From positions 7,815 to 71,814 of the forward strand of contig CAZXKQ010000007.1 of assembly GCA_964641395.1 (NCBI GenBank): DNA of 64,000 nt. Reading direction: 5' to 3'. Below, one piece after another: positions 2,595-64,000 of this stretch. A model generated the notes under the pieces. That model was not told the origin of the DNA and did no database searches. It saw only the letters and a list, made by a program, of their open reading frames with translations. Each line of letters begins with the position of its first letter. Position 1 is the stretch's first letter. The stretch is from an uncultured Phascolarctobacterium sp. Lineage in GTDB: Bacteria > Bacillota > Negativicutes > Acidaminococcales > Acidaminococcaceae. Made by a program: the position numbers and the translations under genes.

Positions 2595-4070
2595 TTATTT
2601 GAAGAGCTCAGGAGCCCACTTAGCAGGATCCACTTCCTTGAACTTGCAGCGCTGGAAGCGGTTCTTCATGGCAAAGGGCACTGTAGCGTCGAAGATGCAC
2701 TTGCAGGCGATGCCGTGATCCCTGATGCTGGGATCAAAGTCCGGGTCATTGGAGGGATCCAGGGGATGGCAGCGAACGCCGGGGATGGGGATGATGTCCA
2801 CATCGGCCTGCAGCCTGGTGGTCATAGCCCACAGCACGTCGTTGGTGTCGAAGATGTCCACGTCATCGTCCACCAGGATGACATGCTTCAATTCAGAGAA
2901 GGCGGAGAAGGCCAGCAGGGCGGCTTGGCGCTGCCTGCCTTCATCAGGAGGAGCCTTCTTTACGAATTGGATCACGGCCAGGTACTTGCCGCCGCCGGAG
3001 CAGTGGGCGTAAACGTTCTTCACGTTGCCAGGCAGAGCCTTCTCCACCATGGTCAGGATGGAGGCCTCGGTAGGCAGGCCGGCCATGTTCACATGCTCCT
3101 CGGAGGGGCCGATGCAGGACTGCATGATGGGGTTGGTCCGGTGGGTTACAGCCTTAACCTTGATAATGGGCAGCTCCGGCTTGCTGGGGCCGGTGTAGCC
3201 GGGGAACTCAGGCATGGCCTTGCCGGTATTGGTATTGATGTCTTCCCTGATCCTTACGTTAGGCAGTAGTTCGCCTTCCACTACGTACTCAGCCCGTGCC
3301 AAGGCCTTCTCGGCGATGGTCTTGCACTGTACCAGCTGCACGGCCTCCTTCCGCAGACCGCCGGCGATGGCCAATTCATTGAAGCCATAGGGGGTGGTGG
3401 GAGCCTCGAAGCAGGCGGCGATTTCAATAGCCGGATCTACGCCGATGCTGATGGAGATAGGCATGGGCTTGCCAGCCTTCTCGTATTTCTGCCGCATAGC
3501 GTCCAGATGGCGGCCAGGTACAAAGTACATGGAGATTTCATCTTTGCTCTGCAGGCAGAGGCGGTGGATGGTGATGTCAGAGGTGCCGGTCTCAGGATCG
3601 GTGCCATAGCACAGGCCCATGGTGATGTAGGGGCCTGCGTCCTCCTCCGTATTGGTGGGGGCGGGGATCAGCTTGCGAATGTCAAAACCTGGTTCGTCCG
3701 CTAGGTGTACCACCTCTTGGCAGGGGGCGGCGGCAGCGTCCACAACCACCGGAGGAATCAGATTTCCCAAGGAGTCTTTAAGCAGGAAGCCCAGCCGGTC
3801 AGGGGGGCAGCCTAGGATATGGCCAACCCGTTCACGGCTAGACAATACGCCGATAACAACCTTGGCGCCTGGATGACCTTTGACTTTGTTGAAAACCATG
3901 GCCGGCCCTAGCTGAGTAGGCCGTTTAACAGTGCCCCTGGCTCCCACCCGGCGGTAAATGCCGGATATCTCGGCCCTGGGATCGGCTTCTACGTCGGTTT
4001 CCAGATACTGGCCGGGGATAGTCTTCAGGTACTCTAGGGCAGAACGTAAATCATTGATCTTATTAGCCAT
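2595..4070 (-). CDS. UbiD-family decarboxylase/carboxylase, divergent paralogue
   Basis: 491 aa with full-length UbiD architecture (DITIHRLCLQSKDEISMYF, VLWAMTTRLQ). The RBS context is nearly identical to the first copy (AAAGGAGGTCTTTCTATG). The canonical EGPFGE block is replaced by GKAMPEFPGY. Confidence 0.88.
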   Translation of the reverse strand: MANKINDLRSALEYLKTIPGQYLETDVEADPRAEISGIYRRVGARGTVKRPTQLGPAMVFNKVKGHPGAKVVIGVLSSRERVGHILGCPPDRLGFLLKDSLGNLIPPVVVDAAAAPCQEVVHLADEPGFDIRKLIPAPTNTEEDAGPYITMGLCYGTDPETGTSDITIHRLCLQSKDEISMYFVPGRHLDAMRQKYEKAGKPMPISISIGVDPAIEIAACFEAPTTPYGFNELAIAGGLRKEAVQLVQCKTIAEKALARAEYVVEGELLPNVRIREDINTNTGKAMPEFPGYTGPSKPELPIIKVKAVTHRTNPIMQSCIGPSEEHVNMAGLPTEASILTMVEKALPGNVKNVYAHCSGGGKYLAVIQFVKKAPPDEGRQRQAALLAFSAFSELKHVILVDDDVDIFDTNDVLWAMTTRLQADVDIIPIPGVRCHPLDPSNDPDFDPSIRDHGIACKCIFDATVPFAMKNRFQRCKFKEVDPAKWAPELFK

Positions 4071-32580: not shown

Positions 32581-33027
32581 TTAGATGTGCATAATACCCA
32601 GTCCCGCCCGCTCATGATTAGTCATGTAGTGGAGGGCGGATAGGCCGAACATGGCCACTGCCAGCCAGTGCTCGTCCCTGGCGATGACCACCTTCATGGC
32701 CAGGCTGCTGGTACGGCTGACGCTGATCAGTATGCCCTTCTTGGCCTCTTCGGTGGCGTGGACCAGGGCGTGGATCTCGTTGCTCTGCTTGGCGATGATG
32801 CCGCCGTTGAGGCCGGCGCCTACCACCGCCTTGATGACCTTTTCATCGAACTCGTTAAAGCTGTTCCTGGCACCGACTTCGGTAACCACCACCCTGTAAC
32901 CCAGCCGCACAGCCGCATCCTTCAGCCGCTGCTCGTCCAGCAGGGTCTTGCTCAAGGCGATGAGCATAGCTGCAGAGCCTACGCCTCTGATACTATTGGT
33001 GATAAAATCTGAGGTACTGGTACTCAT
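32581..33027 (-). CDS. HutP-family RNA-binding (antiterminator-type) protein
   Basis: 148 aa from ATG 33027 (GGAGGAG RBS; the track ORF carries a 67-codon false extension). Collinear with B. subtilis HutP: EIHALVHATEEA / ESHALYHATMEA, HWLAVAMFG / DWIAVSLYG, and C-terminus NHERAGLGIMHI / EHETFGVGINHI. Confidence 0.85.
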   Translation of the reverse strand: MSTSTSDFITNSIRGVGSAAMLIALSKTLLDEQRLKDAAVRLGYRVVVTEVGARNSFNEFDEKVIKAVVGAGLNGGIIAKQSNEIHALVHATEEAKKGILISVSRTSSLAMKVVIARDEHWLAVAMFGLSALHYMTNHERAGLGIMHI

Positions 33028-33122
33028 AGTAGCATGCTCCTCCCCGCCGTCAGGCGGCTGAATGTGAGGGCGGCGCTTGCTCAGAAGCCGGCCAGGCTCT
33101 AGGCCGGGCTGGCGCTTCTCAG

Positions 33123-33863
33123 TCAACGCAGCTTGATTTCGCCAAAGTTGAAGGTGCGCACAGGGCCTCCCTCCTCCTGGATCAGGATGGCCCCGGCAGG
33201 GTCGATGTCCAGGGCCCTGCCCCGGCACAGCTCCTCCTCATCATCCCAGACCCGGACGCTGCTCCCCAGGGTGCAGTTGAGCTGCCGCCACCGCTCCAGC
33301 ATGGGGGCCGCTCCCTGGGCCAGCCACTCCTCATAGAGGGGGGCGAAGCGCTGCAGGATGGCCTCCAGCACCTGCCGGGGAGCCAGCTTGATGCCGGTCT
33401 CCAGCAGCAGCGAGGTGGCGATGGCAGCCAGGTCCGAGGGAAGGTCCTGGGCTGCGAGGGCTACATTGACGCCGATGCCGATTACCACGTAGTCTATGCC
33501 CGTCTCGTCCAAGGCCAGCTCAGAGAGGATGCCGCACAGCTTCCGCCCCTGCCAGAGGAGGTCGTTGGGCCACTTGATCCGCACCTGGTCCGTGCCGTAG
33601 AGGCTGTTGAGGGCCTCTGCTACCGCAACGCCGGCCAGCAGGGTGAGCTGGGCGGCGCAGTCCGGATTGATAGCAGGGCGCAGGATCAGGGAGAAGTAGA
33701 GGCCGCCCTGGGGGGAGAAGAAGCTTCTGGCCAACCGCCCCTTGCCGCCGCTCTGCCGGGCAGCGACTATGACGGTGCCGTCGGCCGCCCCCTGGGAGGC
33801 GGCAGCCGCGGCAGTGCTATTAGTGGATGCTAGCAGGTCATAAAAGCGTAGTTGGAAATCCAT
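33123..33863 (-). CDS. birA: Biotin--protein ligase, class I (no N-terminal HTH domain)
   Basis: QSGGKGRLARSFFSPQGGLYFS (the GRGRxGR-type biotinyl-AMP loop) and KWPNDLL motifs. About 246 aa from ATG 33863; the track start at 33878 is a TTG. Confidence 0.85.
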   Translation of the reverse strand: MDFQLRFYDLLASTNSTAAAAASQGAADGTVIVAARQSGGKGRLARSFFSPQGGLYFSLILRPAINPDCAAQLTLLAGVAVAEALNSLYGTDQVRIKWPNDLLWQGRKLCGILSELALDETGIDYVVIGIGVNVALAAQDLPSDLAAIATSLLLETGIKLAPRQVLEAILQRFAPLYEEWLAQGAAPMLERWRQLNCTLGSSVRVWDDEEELCRGRALDIDPAGAILIQEEGGPVRTFNFGEIKLR

Positions 33864-33919: not shown

Positions 33920-35134
33920 CTATACTTTAACCATGCCGATGGTAGCGATGAAGACGCCGCAGGCGATGGCGGATACGATGACGCCGGCGATGTTAGCGCC
34001 CATGGCTACAGGCATTACTACGGCGAACATGTCTACATCCTCAGCAGCGTGCTGGGCGATCTTGGCGGTAGTAGGTACGCAGGATACGCCGGAAACGCCG
34101 ACTACAGGGTTGAATTCGCCCTTCTTGAACCAGTACACTACCCAGCCGCCCAAGATGCCTACGGCACCGGATACGGTCAAGGCCAGGACGCCGAGGACGA
34201 TTAGAGGAGCTACCTTAGGATTCAACAGGGTGGAGGCTTCGCAGAGGGTGCCCAGCAGGAGGCCCAGCATCAAGGTGCCGCTGTAGAGGAGGGCGCCTTC
34301 CAGCAGGTCCTGGTAGGGAACGATCTCGGCTTCTTTAATAGCCAAACCTAAGAAGAAGCTCATGATAAGGGGAGCAGCCATGGGCAGCAGCAGGCAGAGC
34401 AGGCCGCAGCAAACCAGGATGAAGATGAACTTCTTAGCTTTGGGCACTTCAGGAGCGTCGAAGAGGATGTCCTTGCCGCGATACTTCTCCGGTACCAGGG
34501 CCTTTAACAGCCAGGGATAGCCGGCGTAGGTAAGGGACAGGTAGAGGTAGGCGATGACGCTGATAGGCACGAAGAGGTGGGGTGCCAGCATCAAGGAGGT
34601 AAACAGAACCATGGGGCCGTCAGCGCCGCCGATGGAGGCTACGGCTGCTGCTTCATGGGGGGTCAGGCCTAGGTGAACGCCCAGCACCAGGGTAGCGAAG
34701 GTGCCGCACTCGGCGAAGATGGCGATGATGATACTAGTCCAAGGATTGGCCAGGATGAAGCCGATCTCGCACATAGCGCCTACGCCTAGGAAGACCATGC
34801 AGGCTACCAGGGAGTTAGAGAAGGTCAGGTTGTAGATGGGCTGCAAGAAGTTGACTTGCATAATGTCCACTAGTTCCTTAGGATCGCTGATCAGAGGATC
34901 CAGGAACAGGGTGCCTAGCTTGCCCCCCTCTAAGAAGAGGACGCCGCAGTTGATACAGATCATGCCTATGCCCATGGGCACCATGATCAAGGGCTCCAAC
35001 ACCCGCTTAAAGCCCAGGTAGGCCAGGACGAAGCCGAAGGCCACCAGGAAGATACGGGCGATGGCGATGGTGGGTTCTTGCACCAAGAGGGATGCAATAC
35101 CAGGGAATAACTCAGCTACAAAAGATGCATCCAT
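33920..35134 (-). CDS. madB: Na+-translocating carboxybiotin decarboxylase, beta (membrane) subunit (OadB/GcdB/MadB family)
   Basis: 404 aa polytopic protein; SIGGADGPMVLF and other OadB-family blocks. Confidence 0.92.
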   Translation of the reverse strand: MDASFVAELFPGIASLLVQEPTIAIARIFLVAFGFVLAYLGFKRVLEPLIMVPMGIGMICINCGVLFLEGGKLGTLFLDPLISDPKELVDIMQVNFLQPIYNLTFSNSLVACMVFLGVGAMCEIGFILANPWTSIIIAIFAECGTFATLVLGVHLGLTPHEAAAVASIGGADGPMVLFTSLMLAPHLFVPISVIAYLYLSLTYAGYPWLLKALVPEKYRGKDILFDAPEVPKAKKFIFILVCCGLLCLLLPMAAPLIMSFFLGLAIKEAEIVPYQDLLEGALLYSGTLMLGLLLGTLCEASTLLNPKVAPLIVLGVLALTVSGAVGILGGWVVYWFKKGEFNPVVGVSGVSCVPTTAKIAQHAAEDVDMFAVVMPVAMGANIAGVIVSAIACGVFIATIGMVKV

Positions 35135-35265
35135 TATTGCTCGCCTCCTTCACTACTCTTAGAGCCGCCCATGAGCTTGTTCAACAAGACGACGATGGCG
35201 ATCATGAAGAGGGCGATCGCCGCTGTGAACGCGTAAGAGAATAGTGCGTAAATCTCAACGCTCAT
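35134..35265 (-). CDS. Small single-TM protein, OadG-like (decarboxylase gamma subunit candidate)
   Basis: Not in the track (43 aa): MSVEIYALFSYAFTAAIALFMIAIVVLLNKLMGGSKSSEGGEQ. AAGGAG RBS. Its TAA overlaps the madB ATG (TAATG). Confidence 0.5.
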   Translation of the reverse strand: MSVEIYALFSYAFTAAIALFMIAIVVLLNKLMGGSKSSEGGEQ

Positions 35266-35348
35266 CACAAATTACTCCTTTCGACACTGAAGATTTACTG
35301 GAAAAGACCTGTATATTATTGCCGCCCCAGGTTTCCGGACACCAGGGG

Positions 35349-35388
35349 AAACAAAAATACCCTCTTCCGCACTGTACGGAAAAGGGTA
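35349..35388 (-). terminator. Intrinsic terminator T2 in the mad leader
   Basis: Minus strand TACCCTTTTCCG-tacagtg-CGGAAGAGGGTA (12 bp with one G-U), followed by TTTTTGTTT, 84 nt upstream of the oadG-like start. Confidence 0.6.
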
Positions 35389-35810
35389 CTGGCGCACCAG
35401 GGTTTCGCACCTAAGAGGTCGACCGCTCTACGCTGAAGGCCGCCTCTGCCTTCCTAAGGCTAGGCAGCAGGCTTGTTGGCAGGCTGGCGTCCCAAGCAGG
35501 GGCTGTGTGGGGTGGGCGTACACATTCCGTCACTCGCGGAAACATGTAAAGAGTTAAGACCGTGACCTGACTTTGCTGAAAAGCATCACAGAGGCGTGAC
35601 CGTTGCAGAATTCCACTGCATTCTCACCAGCAGAGCACCTCGGGGTGGGGGCAGGCCACCGTGCCGCAGCTCCGCTGCCGCACTGGAAGGCTCCGCTAAG
35701 CGTCTTAATCACTTTCCTTTATTTTTCCCAACAACTATCCAGCCAACACTCTCTTCACTCGCACCACTTCACTGCCGAACAACCATTGAGATAAGCCAGG
35801 CTCCGTCACC

Positions 35811-35854
35811 AAAACAAAAAAGGAGACTGAATGACTCACGATCACTCAATCTCC
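35811..35854 (-). terminator. Intrinsic terminator T1 in the mad leader
   Basis: Minus strand GGAGATTGAGTGA-tcgtgag-TCATTCAGTCTCC (13 bp with two G-U), followed by TTTTTTGTTTT, about 60-100 nt downstream of the predicted TSS. Confidence 0.7.
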
Positions 35855-35885
35855 ACTATTGGTCATGTCGGTCTCACAGGGGGTA

Positions 35886-35909
35886 GCTCTCTCAGACTCT
35901 CGATCTCTA
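35886..35909 (-). promoter_or_regulatory. Three tandem 8-nt NAGAG-N3 units at the 5' end of the mad leader RNA (candidate protein-binding NAG array)
   Basis: Minus strand TAGAGATC GAGAGTCT GAGAGAGC, read directly. Function is inferred only from the NAG-triplet preference of HutP proteins. Confidence 0.3.
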
Positions 35910-35917
35910 TGGCCCAT

Positions 35918-35946
35918 ATTTTATCTAATAAGTCCCTCCTTGTCAA
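35918..35946 (-). promoter_or_regulatory. Strong sigma-A promoter of the mad leader (TTGACA-17 nt-TAAAAT) with an A/T-rich UP-like element upstream
   Basis: Minus strand TTATTTTTTGCCAAAAAAGCCCTTGACAAGGAGGGACTTATTAGATAAAATATGG. Confidence 0.7.
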
Positions 35947-36009
35947 GGGCTTTTTTGGCAAAAAATAAGGAAAAAGAGAACTAAAGGCAGGGGAAGCCCT
36001 CTCTGGCGG

Positions 36010-37047
36010 CTAGTCCTTCTCTGCCCCTTCTCCTCCGGCCTGGACCAGGTAGGTCCAGCCTCCCTCCTGGCGGATCTTCCCCTCCTTCAGCAGGTGGCCC
36101 AGGGCCCGTTTGAAGGCGGCCTTGGAGAGGTCGAACCTTTGCTTGATGATCTCCGGCGGGGTGCCGTCCCCGTAGGGCATGCTGCCGCCCCGCTGCTGCA
36201 AAAAGGCCTCTAAGCGGCGGGCGTCTAGGTAGAGGGCGTCCTCCTTAGGCGGCCGCAGGGAAGCGTTCACCCGGCCGTCCGGGCGGAGGAAGGTGGCCCG
36301 GCACTGCACCTTCTGGCCGAAGTCCAGCCTGCCCCCCGGCACCTGGTCCCGATGGAGGAAGACTACGTAGCGCTCCTTGGTAAAGAGGAAGAAGCCCTCC
36401 GGCACGATGTTGTAGACGATGCCTTCCAGCCTGTCCCCCACCCGGACGGCGGTGGCAGGCTTGGCGGCCCGCTGCAAGTCTTCCTCCACCCGCATGGTGA
36501 CCGCAGGCCGGCCGCTCTTATCCCGATACAGCTTCACCCACACCAGCTGGCCGGGGCTCACATAGCCCCGCATCTCGCTGTAGGGGAGGAAGACCCCCCG
36601 CTCTCCGCCTAGGTCCACGAAGCCCCCGTCCTTGGTGACGCTGAGGACCTTGGCATAGGTGAGCTGGCCCTCCTTCAGCTTGGGCAGCTTCATGCTGGCC
36701 GTCAAGCGCTTGGCCGGATCCAGGTACAGGTAGACCCGCACCTGCTGGCCCACCTCCACCGGGGCGGTCTGCTGGAAGCGGTGGAGCAGGATGTCGTCAG
36801 AGGTGTTGCCGGTGCCTGCGTCTAAAAAGGCGCCGTTTTCGTCTACCCGGGCCACGGTGAGGGTCACTACGTCCCCCGGCCTGGCGCCGCCGGCCCGCAG
36901 CGGCCCCTCTTCTGTTGTTGTCGGGGCCGGACCTGGGGGAGCAGCCGGCCGCCGGCCCTGCCGCGACCCTCTTCCCTCAGAGGCTGCCGGCCTGGGCCCT
37001 GGGGCCCTGTCCTGGGGTCTGCCGCCCCGCCTCGTTCTCTCCTGCAT
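36010..37047 (-). CDS. cvfB: CvfB/YitL-family S1-like RNA-binding protein with an Arg/Pro/Gly-rich N-terminal extension
   Basis: 345 aa. Repeated S1-like domains and a C-terminal winged helix (FDLSKAAFKRALGHLLKEGKI). The first ~55 residues are low complexity, so the true start may lie further downstream at a non-ATG codon. Confidence 0.82.
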   Translation of the reverse strand: MQERTRRGGRPQDRAPGPRPAASEGRGSRQGRRPAAPPGPAPTTTEEGPLRAGGARPGDVVTLTVARVDENGAFLDAGTGNTSDDILLHRFQQTAPVEVGQQVRVYLYLDPAKRLTASMKLPKLKEGQLTYAKVLSVTKDGGFVDLGGERGVFLPYSEMRGYVSPGQLVWVKLYRDKSGRPAVTMRVEEDLQRAAKPATAVRVGDRLEGIVYNIVPEGFFLFTKERYVVFLHRDQVPGGRLDFGQKVQCRATFLRPDGRVNASLRPPKEDALYLDARRLEAFLQQRGGSMPYGDGTPPEIIKQRFDLSKAAFKRALGHLLKEGKIRQEGGWTYLVQAGGEGAEKD

Positions 37048-63869: not shown

Positions 63870-63882
63870 AGCCTTGACAACT

Positions 63883-63975
63883 GCATGCGGGAGCTTGTGT
63901 TACAGGCTGAGAGGAAGGTGCTACCTTCGACTGCGAACCTGATTTGGATAATGCCAACGTAGGGAAGACGGTGAC
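63883..63975 (+). promoter_or_regulatory. TPP (THI-box) riboswitch aptamer; the expression platform and regulated gene lie beyond the window end
   Basis: GGGAGC...GGCTGAGAGG...GCGAACCTGATTTGGATAATGCCAACGTAGGGAAG matches the conserved THI-box core (CTGAGA, ACCTGAT, GGATAATGCC, CGTAGGGAA). Confidence 0.85.
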
Positions 63976-64000
63976 AGGGCTGCCAAATCGGCGGCCCTTC

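Follow-up and report, generated by a model that had tools for sequence, protein, structure and literature searches.

Within the window, that is, the whole 64,000-nt stretch of DNA analysed here, a 744-nt non-coding region (35266-36009, minus strand) separates cvfB, upstream, from a 44-codon oadG-like ORF, madB (OAD_beta), birA, a HutP-family gene and madA, downstream. To judge from its sequence and that of its relatives, the region probably serves the oadG-madB-birA-hutP-(madA...) operon as its 5' leader, carrying two attenuators in series. The elements at its two ends and in its promoter-proximal part are the following.

36001-35983, minus strand: weak terminator-like hairpin with a T-rich tail, just past the cvfB stop codon (-9.4 kcal/mol, z = +0.6)
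about 35947-35975, minus strand: A/T-rich tract upstream of the promoter
35946..35918, minus strand: sigma-70-type promoter, TTGACA-17-TAAAAT, 11 of 12 consensus positions
35909-35887, minus strand: site I at the transcript 5' end, (U/G)AGAG three times, repeating every 8 nt
35861..35886, minus strand: linker from site I to site II, about 25-100 nt among loci and variable in sequence
about 35859-35835, minus strand: site II (AUAGUGGAGAUUGAGUGA at 35859-35842), continuing into the 5' arm and loop of T1
35854..35822, minus strand: stem of terminator T1, then TTTTTTGTTT, with the U-tract at 35821-35811 (-20.3 kcal/mol, z = -6.4)
35325..35348, minus strand: hairpin with the invariant loop GUCCGGAA, between terminator T2 and the ribosome-binding site
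35263..35280, minus strand: ribosome-binding site AAGGAG (35280-35275) and GTG/ATG start of the 44-codon oadG-like ORF

The promoter, which had been named in an earlier sequence-only reading, is present and conserved in relatives: TTGACA-17-TAnAAT is kept in 19 other loci, which are all those whose available sequence extends that far upstream, and its distance to the first GAG block is fixed across them, so placed that transcription would start near 35911. A consensus scan of 34900-36300 listed two promoter-like sites against 0.4 expected from shuffles and none from T1 to oadG, in agreement with the earlier failure to find a convincing second promoter after T1; between T2 and oadG there is, by eye, a TAATAT without a usable -35, and the conserved nATATCC of that interval is not -10-like. 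Terminators T1 and T2, also called by that reading, were both recovered with U-tracts, and their conservation in about 20 species-level loci bears out the idea of one long leader with two sequential terminators that require read-through. The layout recurs among relatives: upstream of oadG-madB, 20 other Phascolarctobacterium-type loci show an unchanged order of promoter, T1, aptamer, P13, T2 and the extra hairpin, and given this conserved order, common to 21 loci with the window, these elements are, on comparative grounds, more than chance. T1 had further been suggested as the terminator of the upstream rsfS-cvfB unit; it may act there as a back-up, although this is unnecessary, since cvfB has a weak hairpin and a T-run after it already. 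The stability of that hairpin is no better than that of shuffles, and at its position each of the two same-genus relatives carries a strong terminator.

The first ~100 nt of the transcript had been offered as a Na+ riboswitch or an independent sRNA. Most likely, as far as comparison of the loci can tell, they fit a protein-binding attenuator of the HutP type better than either, because the triplets are conserved while the linker varies in length and sequence. Site I reads UAGAG-AUC-GAGAG-UCU-GAGAGAG in the window, and the orthologues have CGAGAGAnnnUGAGAG at its position, with variable spacer bases. In the 5' arm of T1 the A and G of every triplet are invariant and the X and spacer positions vary, with a compensating 3'-arm change in two cases. 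The triplet period is 8 nt in site I of the window, 10 nt in site I of the orthologues, and 5-6 and then 10 nt in site II. In most orthologue leaders GAG is commoner than in dinucleotide shuffles; the T1 leader of the window itself shows no significant enrichment, with 10 against 8.3 expected (p = 0.13, dinucleotide shuffles). When the 1.68-Mb genome was scanned with a loose triplet motif, this was found only at T1 and at T3, the second of the two features listed next.

32584..33027, minus strand: operon HutP-family gene (ATG at 33027, 148 aa), whose product may act in trans on T1
about 32552-32490, minus strand: terminator T3 with the same triplet motif, directly after hutP

Such an arrangement resembles HutP antitermination in the Bacillus subtilis hut operon (PMC2425495; PDB 1wmq, 1vea, 2GZT), where recognition is reported to be A/G-specific, in keeping with the invariant A and G of the triplets. 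As in hut, the regulated operon codes for a HutP-family protein, and two XAG-rich sites with conserved A and G accompany the terminator, one preceding it and one lying inside it; the further terminator of the same motif directly after hutP is another likeness. The hut geometry of three XAG per site with 4-nt spacers, a 7-nt period and a 12-17-nt linker (PMC2425495) is not matched, the triplet periods being 6-10 nt and the linker 25-100 nt. Also unlike hut, the operon concerns malonate decarboxylation and not histidine degradation, and the site occupies the 5' end of the operon as a whole, ahead of hutP. PF09021 scores 100 bits on window 32581-33228, and the operon protein aligns to the PDB HutP chains 1vea and 1wmq, although it is distant from these solved structures (27 bits). 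Among 147 genomes of the order searched with MadA, 38 have a MadA with 87-100% identity, and a HutP-family gene is present in 26 of the 26 related loci examined, none of which provides a mad operon without hutP as a natural control. The gene lies 3' of both checkpoints, and therefore either basal read-through or another source of the protein is needed. A distant second HutP paralogue, on contig C32 of the same genome, could be involved at T1 instead of the operon HutP; with 25-27% identity, it was not accepted as orthologous to hutP2, which precedes the leader in P. faecium-type loci.

We consider it improbable that these ~100 nt instead sense an ion or a small molecule as a riboswitch, or form an independent sRNA with its 3' end at T1. 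It is true that a strong promoter followed some 100 nt later by a strong terminator would yield a discrete short RNA, that an excess of such triplet-bearing RNA could also titrate HutP, and that the HutP sites are only predicted. However, the segment has no match in Rfam even at E <= 10, its only conserved helix among the loci compared is T1, apart from which its fold is no better than that of shuffles (z = -1.9), the ~25-100 nt between its conserved ends are not conserved in sequence, and its conserved part consists of single-stranded purine triplets of the kind that proteins typically bind. We also rejected an RNA antiterminator for T1, in which AGUCU of site I would pair with the T1 5' arm, because it is not conserved in relatives. 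Six loci were returned by a metagenome scan with the 19-nt T1 motif, and these were dismissed as chance matches, since none has a match to the riboswitch model described below and the one read through was unrelated sequence; further members of the genus of the window were not found in that scan.

Beyond T1, the leader continues as follows.

35709..35810, minus strand: spacer from T1 to the aptamer, 74% identical to a same-genus relative
35554..35708, minus strand: cobalamin-riboswitch aptamer, from the RF01482 match and a model of orthologues
35708-35702 with 35560-35554, minus strand: P1, UUAAGAC with GUCUUAA
about 35701-35629, minus strand: branched, lineage-specific P2 insert of about 75 nt
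35620-35604, minus strand: P4
35601-35593, minus strand: P5
35591-35589 with 35569-35567, minus strand: P6 base CUG/CAG, preceded by GCCUCUGUGA
within the aptamer, minus strand: AAGUCAGGUC junction
35519..35548, minus strand: P13 hairpin with loop CGAGUGA, presumed kissing partner of L5 (UCACG) and anti-antiterminator
35376..35530, minus strand: antiterminator, in which the P13 3' strand plus GCCCACC (35530-35511) pairs with GGUGCGCCAGUACCCUUUUCCGU (35398-35376)
35510-35399, minus strand: GC-rich insert of about 105 nt inside the antiterminator loop, 49% identical to a same-genus relative
35346..35390, minus strand: terminator T2, 16-bp stem 35390..35356 and U-tract (-22.8 kcal/mol, z = -6.7)

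This '~420-nt RNA', for which a structured RNA of an unrecognised class had been suggested, is by homology a cobalamin riboswitch composed of aptamer, P13, antiterminator and T2. In the window, a search at the Rfam gathering thresholds returned no family for the region, whereas in E-value mode AdoCbl was the only meaningful match, with 38.2 bits for RF01482 (E = 2.8e-5; threshold 50) and 18.8 bits for RF00174 (threshold 31.5); those to HIV SL4, HOTTIP and DUF3800-XI were regarded as noise. It is through orthologues only, the copy of the window being itself below threshold, that a known Rfam family explains the segment. Seven of the 12 related loci scanned have above-threshold RF00174 matches upstream of oadG (45.7-50.4 bits in L009, L013, L016, L017, L018, L022 and L024), the core of the window is orthologous to the cores of its relatives by BLAST and MAFFT, and a model built from 16 orthologues, R1, gives the window copy 70.3 bits (E = 5.6e-16). 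In P1, a double change from UUAAGG/CCUUAA to UUAAGAC/GUCUUAA keeps the pairing.

The closest known system is the short form of the cobalamin riboswitch with a P13 kissing hairpin (Rfam clan CL00101: RF00174 Cobalamin, RF01482 AdoCbl), with which the element shares P1, P4 with a 7-nt loop, P5 (GG-UCACG-CC), GCCnCUGUGA, AAGUCAGnUC and a 3' hairpin with a GCGAG loop, besides a terminator-type platform with anti-antiterminator, antiterminator and terminator. It is unlike that form in its branched P2 insert, in the GAGAA junction and in the insert of the antiterminator loop, and it differs from known cobalamin riboswitches in the genes regulated, which here encode a biotin-type Na+ malonate decarboxylase; in a full-text literature search, no report associating the two was found. 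The absence of a gathering-level Rfam match and the many local GC-rich hairpins would suit an unrecognised class of RNA, but we regard this as very improbable indeed, since it is contradicted by the RF00174-scoring orthologues and by the R1 score. The extra length of the segment is mostly that of two fast-evolving, poorly conserved GC-rich inserts in tolerated loops, P2 and the antiterminator loop, and its overall fold is no better than that of shuffles (z = -1.5). The C-rich tracts and repeated words to which attention had been drawn are real, and the tracts pair locally within these two inserts: CCCACCCC, at about 35649-35642, with GGUGG as a hairpin of the P2 insert, and the tract at about 35514-35507 with GGUG(CG), extending the antiterminator. 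Of the two copies of GCGAGUGA, one forms the P13 loop and the other lies in the spacer that separates T1 from the aptamer; this spacer also holds a GAG/UAG-rich patch (GCGAGUGAAGAGAG...GAUAG).

It is unlikely, although the possibility deserves some weight, that the aptamer has become a decaying relic in this genus and no longer senses B12, so that T2 and the P13/antiterminator platform would be a constitutive partial attenuator or be controlled by something else, for example by HutP bound both to the upstream spacer and to the loop and 3' strand of P13. Both P13 and the spacer are indeed GAG-rich, and the copy of the window falls under both Rfam thresholds. Aptamer decay does occur in the lineage, because R1 gives no more than 28.5 and 20.9 bits for the two same-genus relatives, neither of which has an Rfam match even at E <= 10, and the aptamer core of another species (L010) is wrecked; since P13, the antiterminator and T2 are perfectly conserved in this last locus, the platform can be kept without a canonical aptamer. 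Against decay in the window, its R1 score exceeds that of the above-threshold riboswitch of the same genome (63.4 bits), located upstream of a nik/opp-type ABC transporter, a classical B12-regulon transporter that is preceded by the same riboswitch subtype in two other genomes. The window also retains P1, P4, P5, the P6 base and the ACGGUCACGCC / AAGUCAGG core. Its core is 77% identical to that of the same-genus relative, which resembles the functional modules overall (70-86%) and not inserts such as P2 (25%). The junction has GAGAA for AGGGAA and GCCUCUG for GCCACUG, and P2 is replaced; the other two cobalamin riboswitches of the genome likewise deviate from AGGGAA and GCCACUG.

The expression platform also speaks for the riboswitch reading, with T2 as the predicted output. 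P13, the antiterminator and T2 are mutually exclusive helices conserved with compensatory changes: the antiterminator helix is 89.5% paired across 17 orthologues, with two compensatory pairs, against 37-69% in slid controls, and coordinated changes of U>C, A>G, U>C and A>G at four strands preserve P13, antiterminator and T2 together. The GCGAGnGAC loop of P13 is also found in the other two cobalamin riboswitches of the genome. When the T2 3' arm was left out of the folds, which mimics transcription in progress, the RNA folded into the antiterminator in orthologues and window alike, despite the 105-nt insert. In the full-length minimum free energy folds the antiterminator is absent because T2 always wins, and therefore regulation must be kinetic.

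The leader thus looks like a set of known parts in a combination not described before, because its first stop signal appears protein-controlled, of the HutP type, and its second is a divergent vitamin-B12 riboswitch. Homology, conserved anatomy, the alternative helices and covariation are observed here; cobalamin binding by the window copy, HutP binding, the direction of each switch, an AND-NOT logic and a physiological rationale are inferred. Checkpoint 1 (about 35911-35811) would be a protein-dependent attenuator in which the operon-encoded HutP-family hexamer, activated first by an effector, perhaps malonate, binds sites I and II and prevents the T1 hairpin, as HutP does at the B. subtilis hut terminator. 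Checkpoint 2 (about 35708-35346) would be a cobalamin riboswitch of the OFF type. On binding B12, its aptamer would dock the P13 hairpin, making the P13 3' strand unavailable, and T2 would form and terminate; with no B12, that strand would pair with the T2 5' arm as antiterminator, allowing transcription into oadG-madB. The net logic, inducer AND NOT B12, would turn on the B12-independent, Na+-pumping malonate pathway when the inducer is present and B12 scarce. The main energy pathway of this bacterium, from succinate to propionate, requires B12, and when the vitamin is available this pathway could replace that of malonate. Methylmalonyl-CoA mutase, which is B12-dependent, is encoded together with a second OAD_beta pump on contig C16 of the same genome.

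The second checkpoint seems to be exchangeable. In five of the five loci where another hutP, a close relative of the first, lies immediately upstream, a third triplet-type terminator replaces the riboswitch module, so that, in the loci compared, the B12 aptamer and platform would go with the lack of an upstream hutP2 and a third HutP-type terminator with its presence. The full proposal, of a hybrid logic gate with a HutP-type antiterminator and a cobalamin riboswitch in series, B12 shutting off malonate decarboxylase, plus a swappable second checkpoint, we put forward tentatively, as one that may quite possibly hold.

Tandem control has precedents. Upstream of Bacillus clausii metE, the SAM and AdoCbl riboswitches are also two complete attenuators in series with their own terminators in one leader (PMC9481103, a review), and therefore both conditions must permit read-through; one of them is, as here, a B12 switch repressing a B12-independent function, whereas in our case the first element is apparently protein-dependent and the inferred gate is inducer AND NOT B12 instead of NOR. 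In the eut system of Enterococcus and Listeria, an ANTAR antiterminator (EutV) and an RNA with an AdoCbl riboswitch (EutX/Rli55) are combined (PMC3369931, PMC5821096). Both systems have an RNA-binding antiterminator protein and a short AdoCbl-type B12 riboswitch in control of one catabolic operon, and the best Rfam match of the window is the eut-type model RF01482. Unlike here, where the riboswitch lies in cis in the leader, repression is predicted and the protein is HutP-type and not ANTAR, the eut riboswitch controls a trans-acting decoy sRNA and B12 activates.

The B12-independent functions repressed by B12 riboswitches include those of the metE and nrd type, and, if our proposal is true, an energy-conserving decarboxylase pump would join them. 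It would also link B12 supply to the choice between malonate and succinate as substrate in Phascolarctobacterium, an abundant gut genus. The locus would take HutP-type antitermination beyond histidine to a second setting in which the candidate RNA sites are clear, and would be a natural case of protein-controlled and RNA-controlled attenuators wired in series, whose sensor modules appear to be exchanged between sister species. For annotation, it illustrates that Rfam thresholds miss diverged riboswitch copies with large inserts and that synteny with related genomes recovers them.

A few minor observations concern the remainder of the region. A 52-codon ORF (35554-35712) that overlaps the aptamer was rejected as spurious because, although its start is conserved in relatives, its protein sequence is not. 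A plasmid BLAST with the leader gave no match. The hairpin with the GUCCGGAA loop shows compensatory changes in four of its seven pairs and is present also in loci without the riboswitch.

The non-coding gap of 744 nt ahead of the Na+-pump operon holds the promoter and the two intrinsic terminators (T1 and T2) that the sequence-only reading had placed there, and a promoter scan gave no promoter-like site between T1 and oadG, in agreement with its view that no second promoter follows T1.

36010-37047 and 35134-35268, minus strand: cvfB and the 44-codon oadG-like ORF, which border the gap
35946-35918, minus strand: promoter, TTGACA-17-TAAAAT
35909-35887, minus strand: triplet site I, UAGAG-AUC-GAGAG-UCU-GAGAGAG, at the 5' end (CGAGAGAnnnUGAGAG in orthologues)
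35859-35842, minus strand: triplet site II, AUAGUGGAGAUUGAGUGA, extending into the T1 5' arm
35854-35822, minus strand: T1 stem, with U-tract, -20.3 kcal/mol, z = -6.4
35390-35356, minus strand: T2 stem, with U-tract, -22.8 kcal/mol, z = -6.7
3' of the leader, minus strand: madB (OAD_beta), birA, the HutP-family gene and madA

By BLAST, the whole leader is carried by two same-genus genomes at 67% identity, and column identity averages 83% when these are aligned with the window. With the operon's HutP as query, the order oadG-madB-birA-hutP-madA was found in 26/26 loci, 20 of which, with the window, gave 21 collinear leaders sharing the order promoter, GAG blocks, variable linker, T1, spacer, aptamer, P13, T2, GUCCGGAA-loop hairpin and ribosome-binding site. 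A long leader with two checkpoints is supported. T1 would serve the upstream cvfB at most as a back-up terminator, since a hairpin with a T-run already lies 3' of cvfB; it is weak in the window (-9.4 kcal/mol, not above shuffles), and relatives have a strong terminator at its position.

The first checkpoint looks like a HutP-type attenuator. HutP acts through two XAG-rich sites with A/G-specific recognition, and its binding keeps the terminator from forming (PMC2425495). Judged from sequence, the conserved purine triplets at T1 match this published mode. In the triplets of the T1 5' arm, A and G are invariant while X and spacer positions vary, their changes being twice compensated in the 3' arm, and the T1 loop, elsewhere variable, keeps one more GAG. 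Against dinucleotide shuffles, most orthologues show an excess of GAG, which falls short of significance in the window's own copy. HutP as the factor is also favoured by the operon's own HutP-family protein, which aligns with solved HutP chains, and by T3, the terminator 3' of hutP, which has the same triplet motif in all loci. In the 1.68-Mb genome, T1 and T3 are the only places that match a loose version of the motif; chance alone would give about one match, so it is the positions and not the count that carry weight. Compared with the Bacillus HutP system, the triplet periods are 6-10 nt instead of 7, the linker is longer, and hutP lies downstream of the sites. The proposal that the first ~100 nt form a Na+ riboswitch or an sRNA is not supported, given that purine triplets are conserved and that no conserved helix was found 5' of T1 in the leaders compared; the length between conserved ends 5' of T1 ranges from about 25 to 100 nt among loci, and the whole-leader fold is unremarkable (z = -1.9). 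The spacer from T1 to the aptamer (35713-35810, minus strand; 74% conserved in the genus) holds a GAG/UAG-rich patch, of which most orthologues and the P. faecium-type leaders have variants and which may be an additional protein site.

No Rfam family passes the gathering threshold in the leader region. In E-value mode, the AdoCbl family RF01482 (threshold 50) matches 35515-35638 at 38.2 bits (E = 2.8e-5), short of its threshold; the score on the cobalamin family RF00174 is only 18.8 bits, and seven related loci reach 45.7-50.4 bits on that family (threshold 31.5) at the homologous position. A covariance model built from 16 orthologues, R1, with an Rfam-like structure of P1-P6 and P13, gives the window 70.3 bits (E = 5.6e-16), and gives 63.4 bits, a lower score, to a riboswitch of the same genome that passes the Rfam threshold (C8:46101-46225, on another contig). 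This sequence evidence identifies the 420-nt segment as a cobalamin riboswitch. Of the earlier reading, the long two-checkpoint leader stands; the "unrecognised RNA class" and the Na+ riboswitch or sRNA are not supported. The C8 riboswitch sits ahead of a nik/opp-type ABC transporter, and members of the R1 subtype precede the same transporter in two other genomes (loci L004, 123 bits, and L005, 75 bits), which places the subtype in the ordinary B12 regulon. A third cobalamin-riboswitch-like element (C8:51809-51911, plus strand, = L040:10809-10911; 28.4 bits on RF00174, 24.3 on R1) has a P13-like hairpin and convergent genes opposite, is followed by no sizeable ORF on its own strand for ~2.5 kb, and is perhaps a riboswitch of the sRNA or antisense type. 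A 52-codon ORF that starts with GTG behind a weak Shine-Dalgarno sequence (35554-35712, minus strand) covers exactly the aptamer, from one strand of P1 to the other, and was judged spurious, its start being kept in relatives and its peptide not.

In the expression platform, P13 (35548-35519) is nearly invariant between species. When RNA lacking the T2 3' arm, as present during transcription, was folded, the P13 3' strand (ACGGAA-U-G-U-GUAC...) paired with the T2 5' arm (...GUAC-C-C-UU-UUCCGU) in orthologues and in the window, where a 105-nt insert forms the loop and GCCCACC/GGUGCG lengthens the helix. Across 17 orthologues this antiterminator is 89.5% paired, against 37-69% in slid controls, and shows two compensatory pairs. 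Relative to orthologues, the window has a coordinated substitution at one position across the four strands (U>C in P13 5' and T2 5', A>G in P13 3' and T2 3'), which preserves P13, antiterminator and T2 together. The three helices exclude one another, as is classical for an OFF switch, a direction that we infer: bound ligand would fix P13 via the L5-L13 contact, blocking the antiterminator and letting T2 terminate.

The sequence of the copy in the window looks maintained and not random. P1 carries a compensatory change (UUAAGG/CCUUAA in the orthologues, UUAAGAC/GUCUUAA in the window), P4, P5, the P6 base, ACGGUCACGCC and AAGUCAGG are retained, and the aptamer core is 77% identical to that of a same-genus relative. 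The extra length lies in two GC-rich, lineage-specific inserts, one of ~75 nt in place of the P2 hairpin and one of ~105 nt between P13 and T2 (25% and 49% identity to the same relative); the two CCCACCCC tracts pointed out earlier are real, and both are locally paired inside these inserts. The junction reads GAGAA where AGGGAA is expected and GCCUCUG where GCCACUG is expected, and the accepted riboswitches of this genome likewise depart from both. The two same-genus relatives have diverged much further, with 28.5 and 20.9 bits on R1 and no Rfam match at E <= 10, and in one species (L010:3417-3555) the aptamer core has given way to an unrelated stretch of about the same length that forms a strong hairpin, P1, P13, antiterminator and T2 being intact despite the loss, as either a dead switch or one of changed specificity. 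Loss of B12 sensing with the platform kept therefore does occur in the group; the window copy probably still senses B12.

In five loci (L026, L028, L030, L031 and L032), including P. faecium DSM 14760, a second, closely related hutP lies directly upstream of the leader promoter, its product 41-53% identical to the operon's HutP. Neither Rfam nor R1 finds a riboswitch in any of the five, and a second triplet-type terminator (AAAGUGGUGAAAGAGAGA...) replaces it, giving the order (about 2960-3860) hutP paralogue, promoter, T1, second triplet-type terminator, GUCCGGAA/AUCCGGAA hairpin and oadG. The second checkpoint is thus an exchangeable module. Close HutP paralogues are more numerous where triplet-type terminators are more numerous, which supports the reading of the triplets as protein sites. 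A distant second HutP paralogue of the window's genome (C32:16588-17025, plus strand, = L039:4589-5026; 138 bits on PF09021) lies directly 3' of a Na+:solute symporter gene; the contig stops ~70 nt after it, within TTGACG-17-TATAGT, which resembles a promoter, and leaves the paralogue's target operon out of view.

Methylmalonyl-CoA mutase, a B12-dependent enzyme, is encoded together with a second OAD_beta pump on contig C16 of this genome, presumably for the succinate-to-propionate route. B12 represses B12-independent isoenzymes, and its putative repression of the B12-independent malonate pump would parallel this. A full-text literature search found no paper that connects malonate decarboxylase in Phascolarctobacterium with HutP or a cobalamin riboswitch. 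The parts of the leader are of known kinds; the HutP-type attenuator and B12 riboswitch in series, the pathway regulated and the swapping of modules between sister species appear to be new.

Between T2 and the ribosome-binding site (35325-35348, minus strand), the hairpin with the invariant 8-nt loop GUCCGGAA, self-complementary through UCCGGA, has compensatory changes in 4/7 stem pairs among 19 loci, is kept in riboswitch-less loci too and has no Rfam match. Two further RNA features of the window exceed their Rfam gathering scores.

63877-63982, plus strand: TPP riboswitch, 59.8 bits
9034-9107, minus strand: tRNA gene
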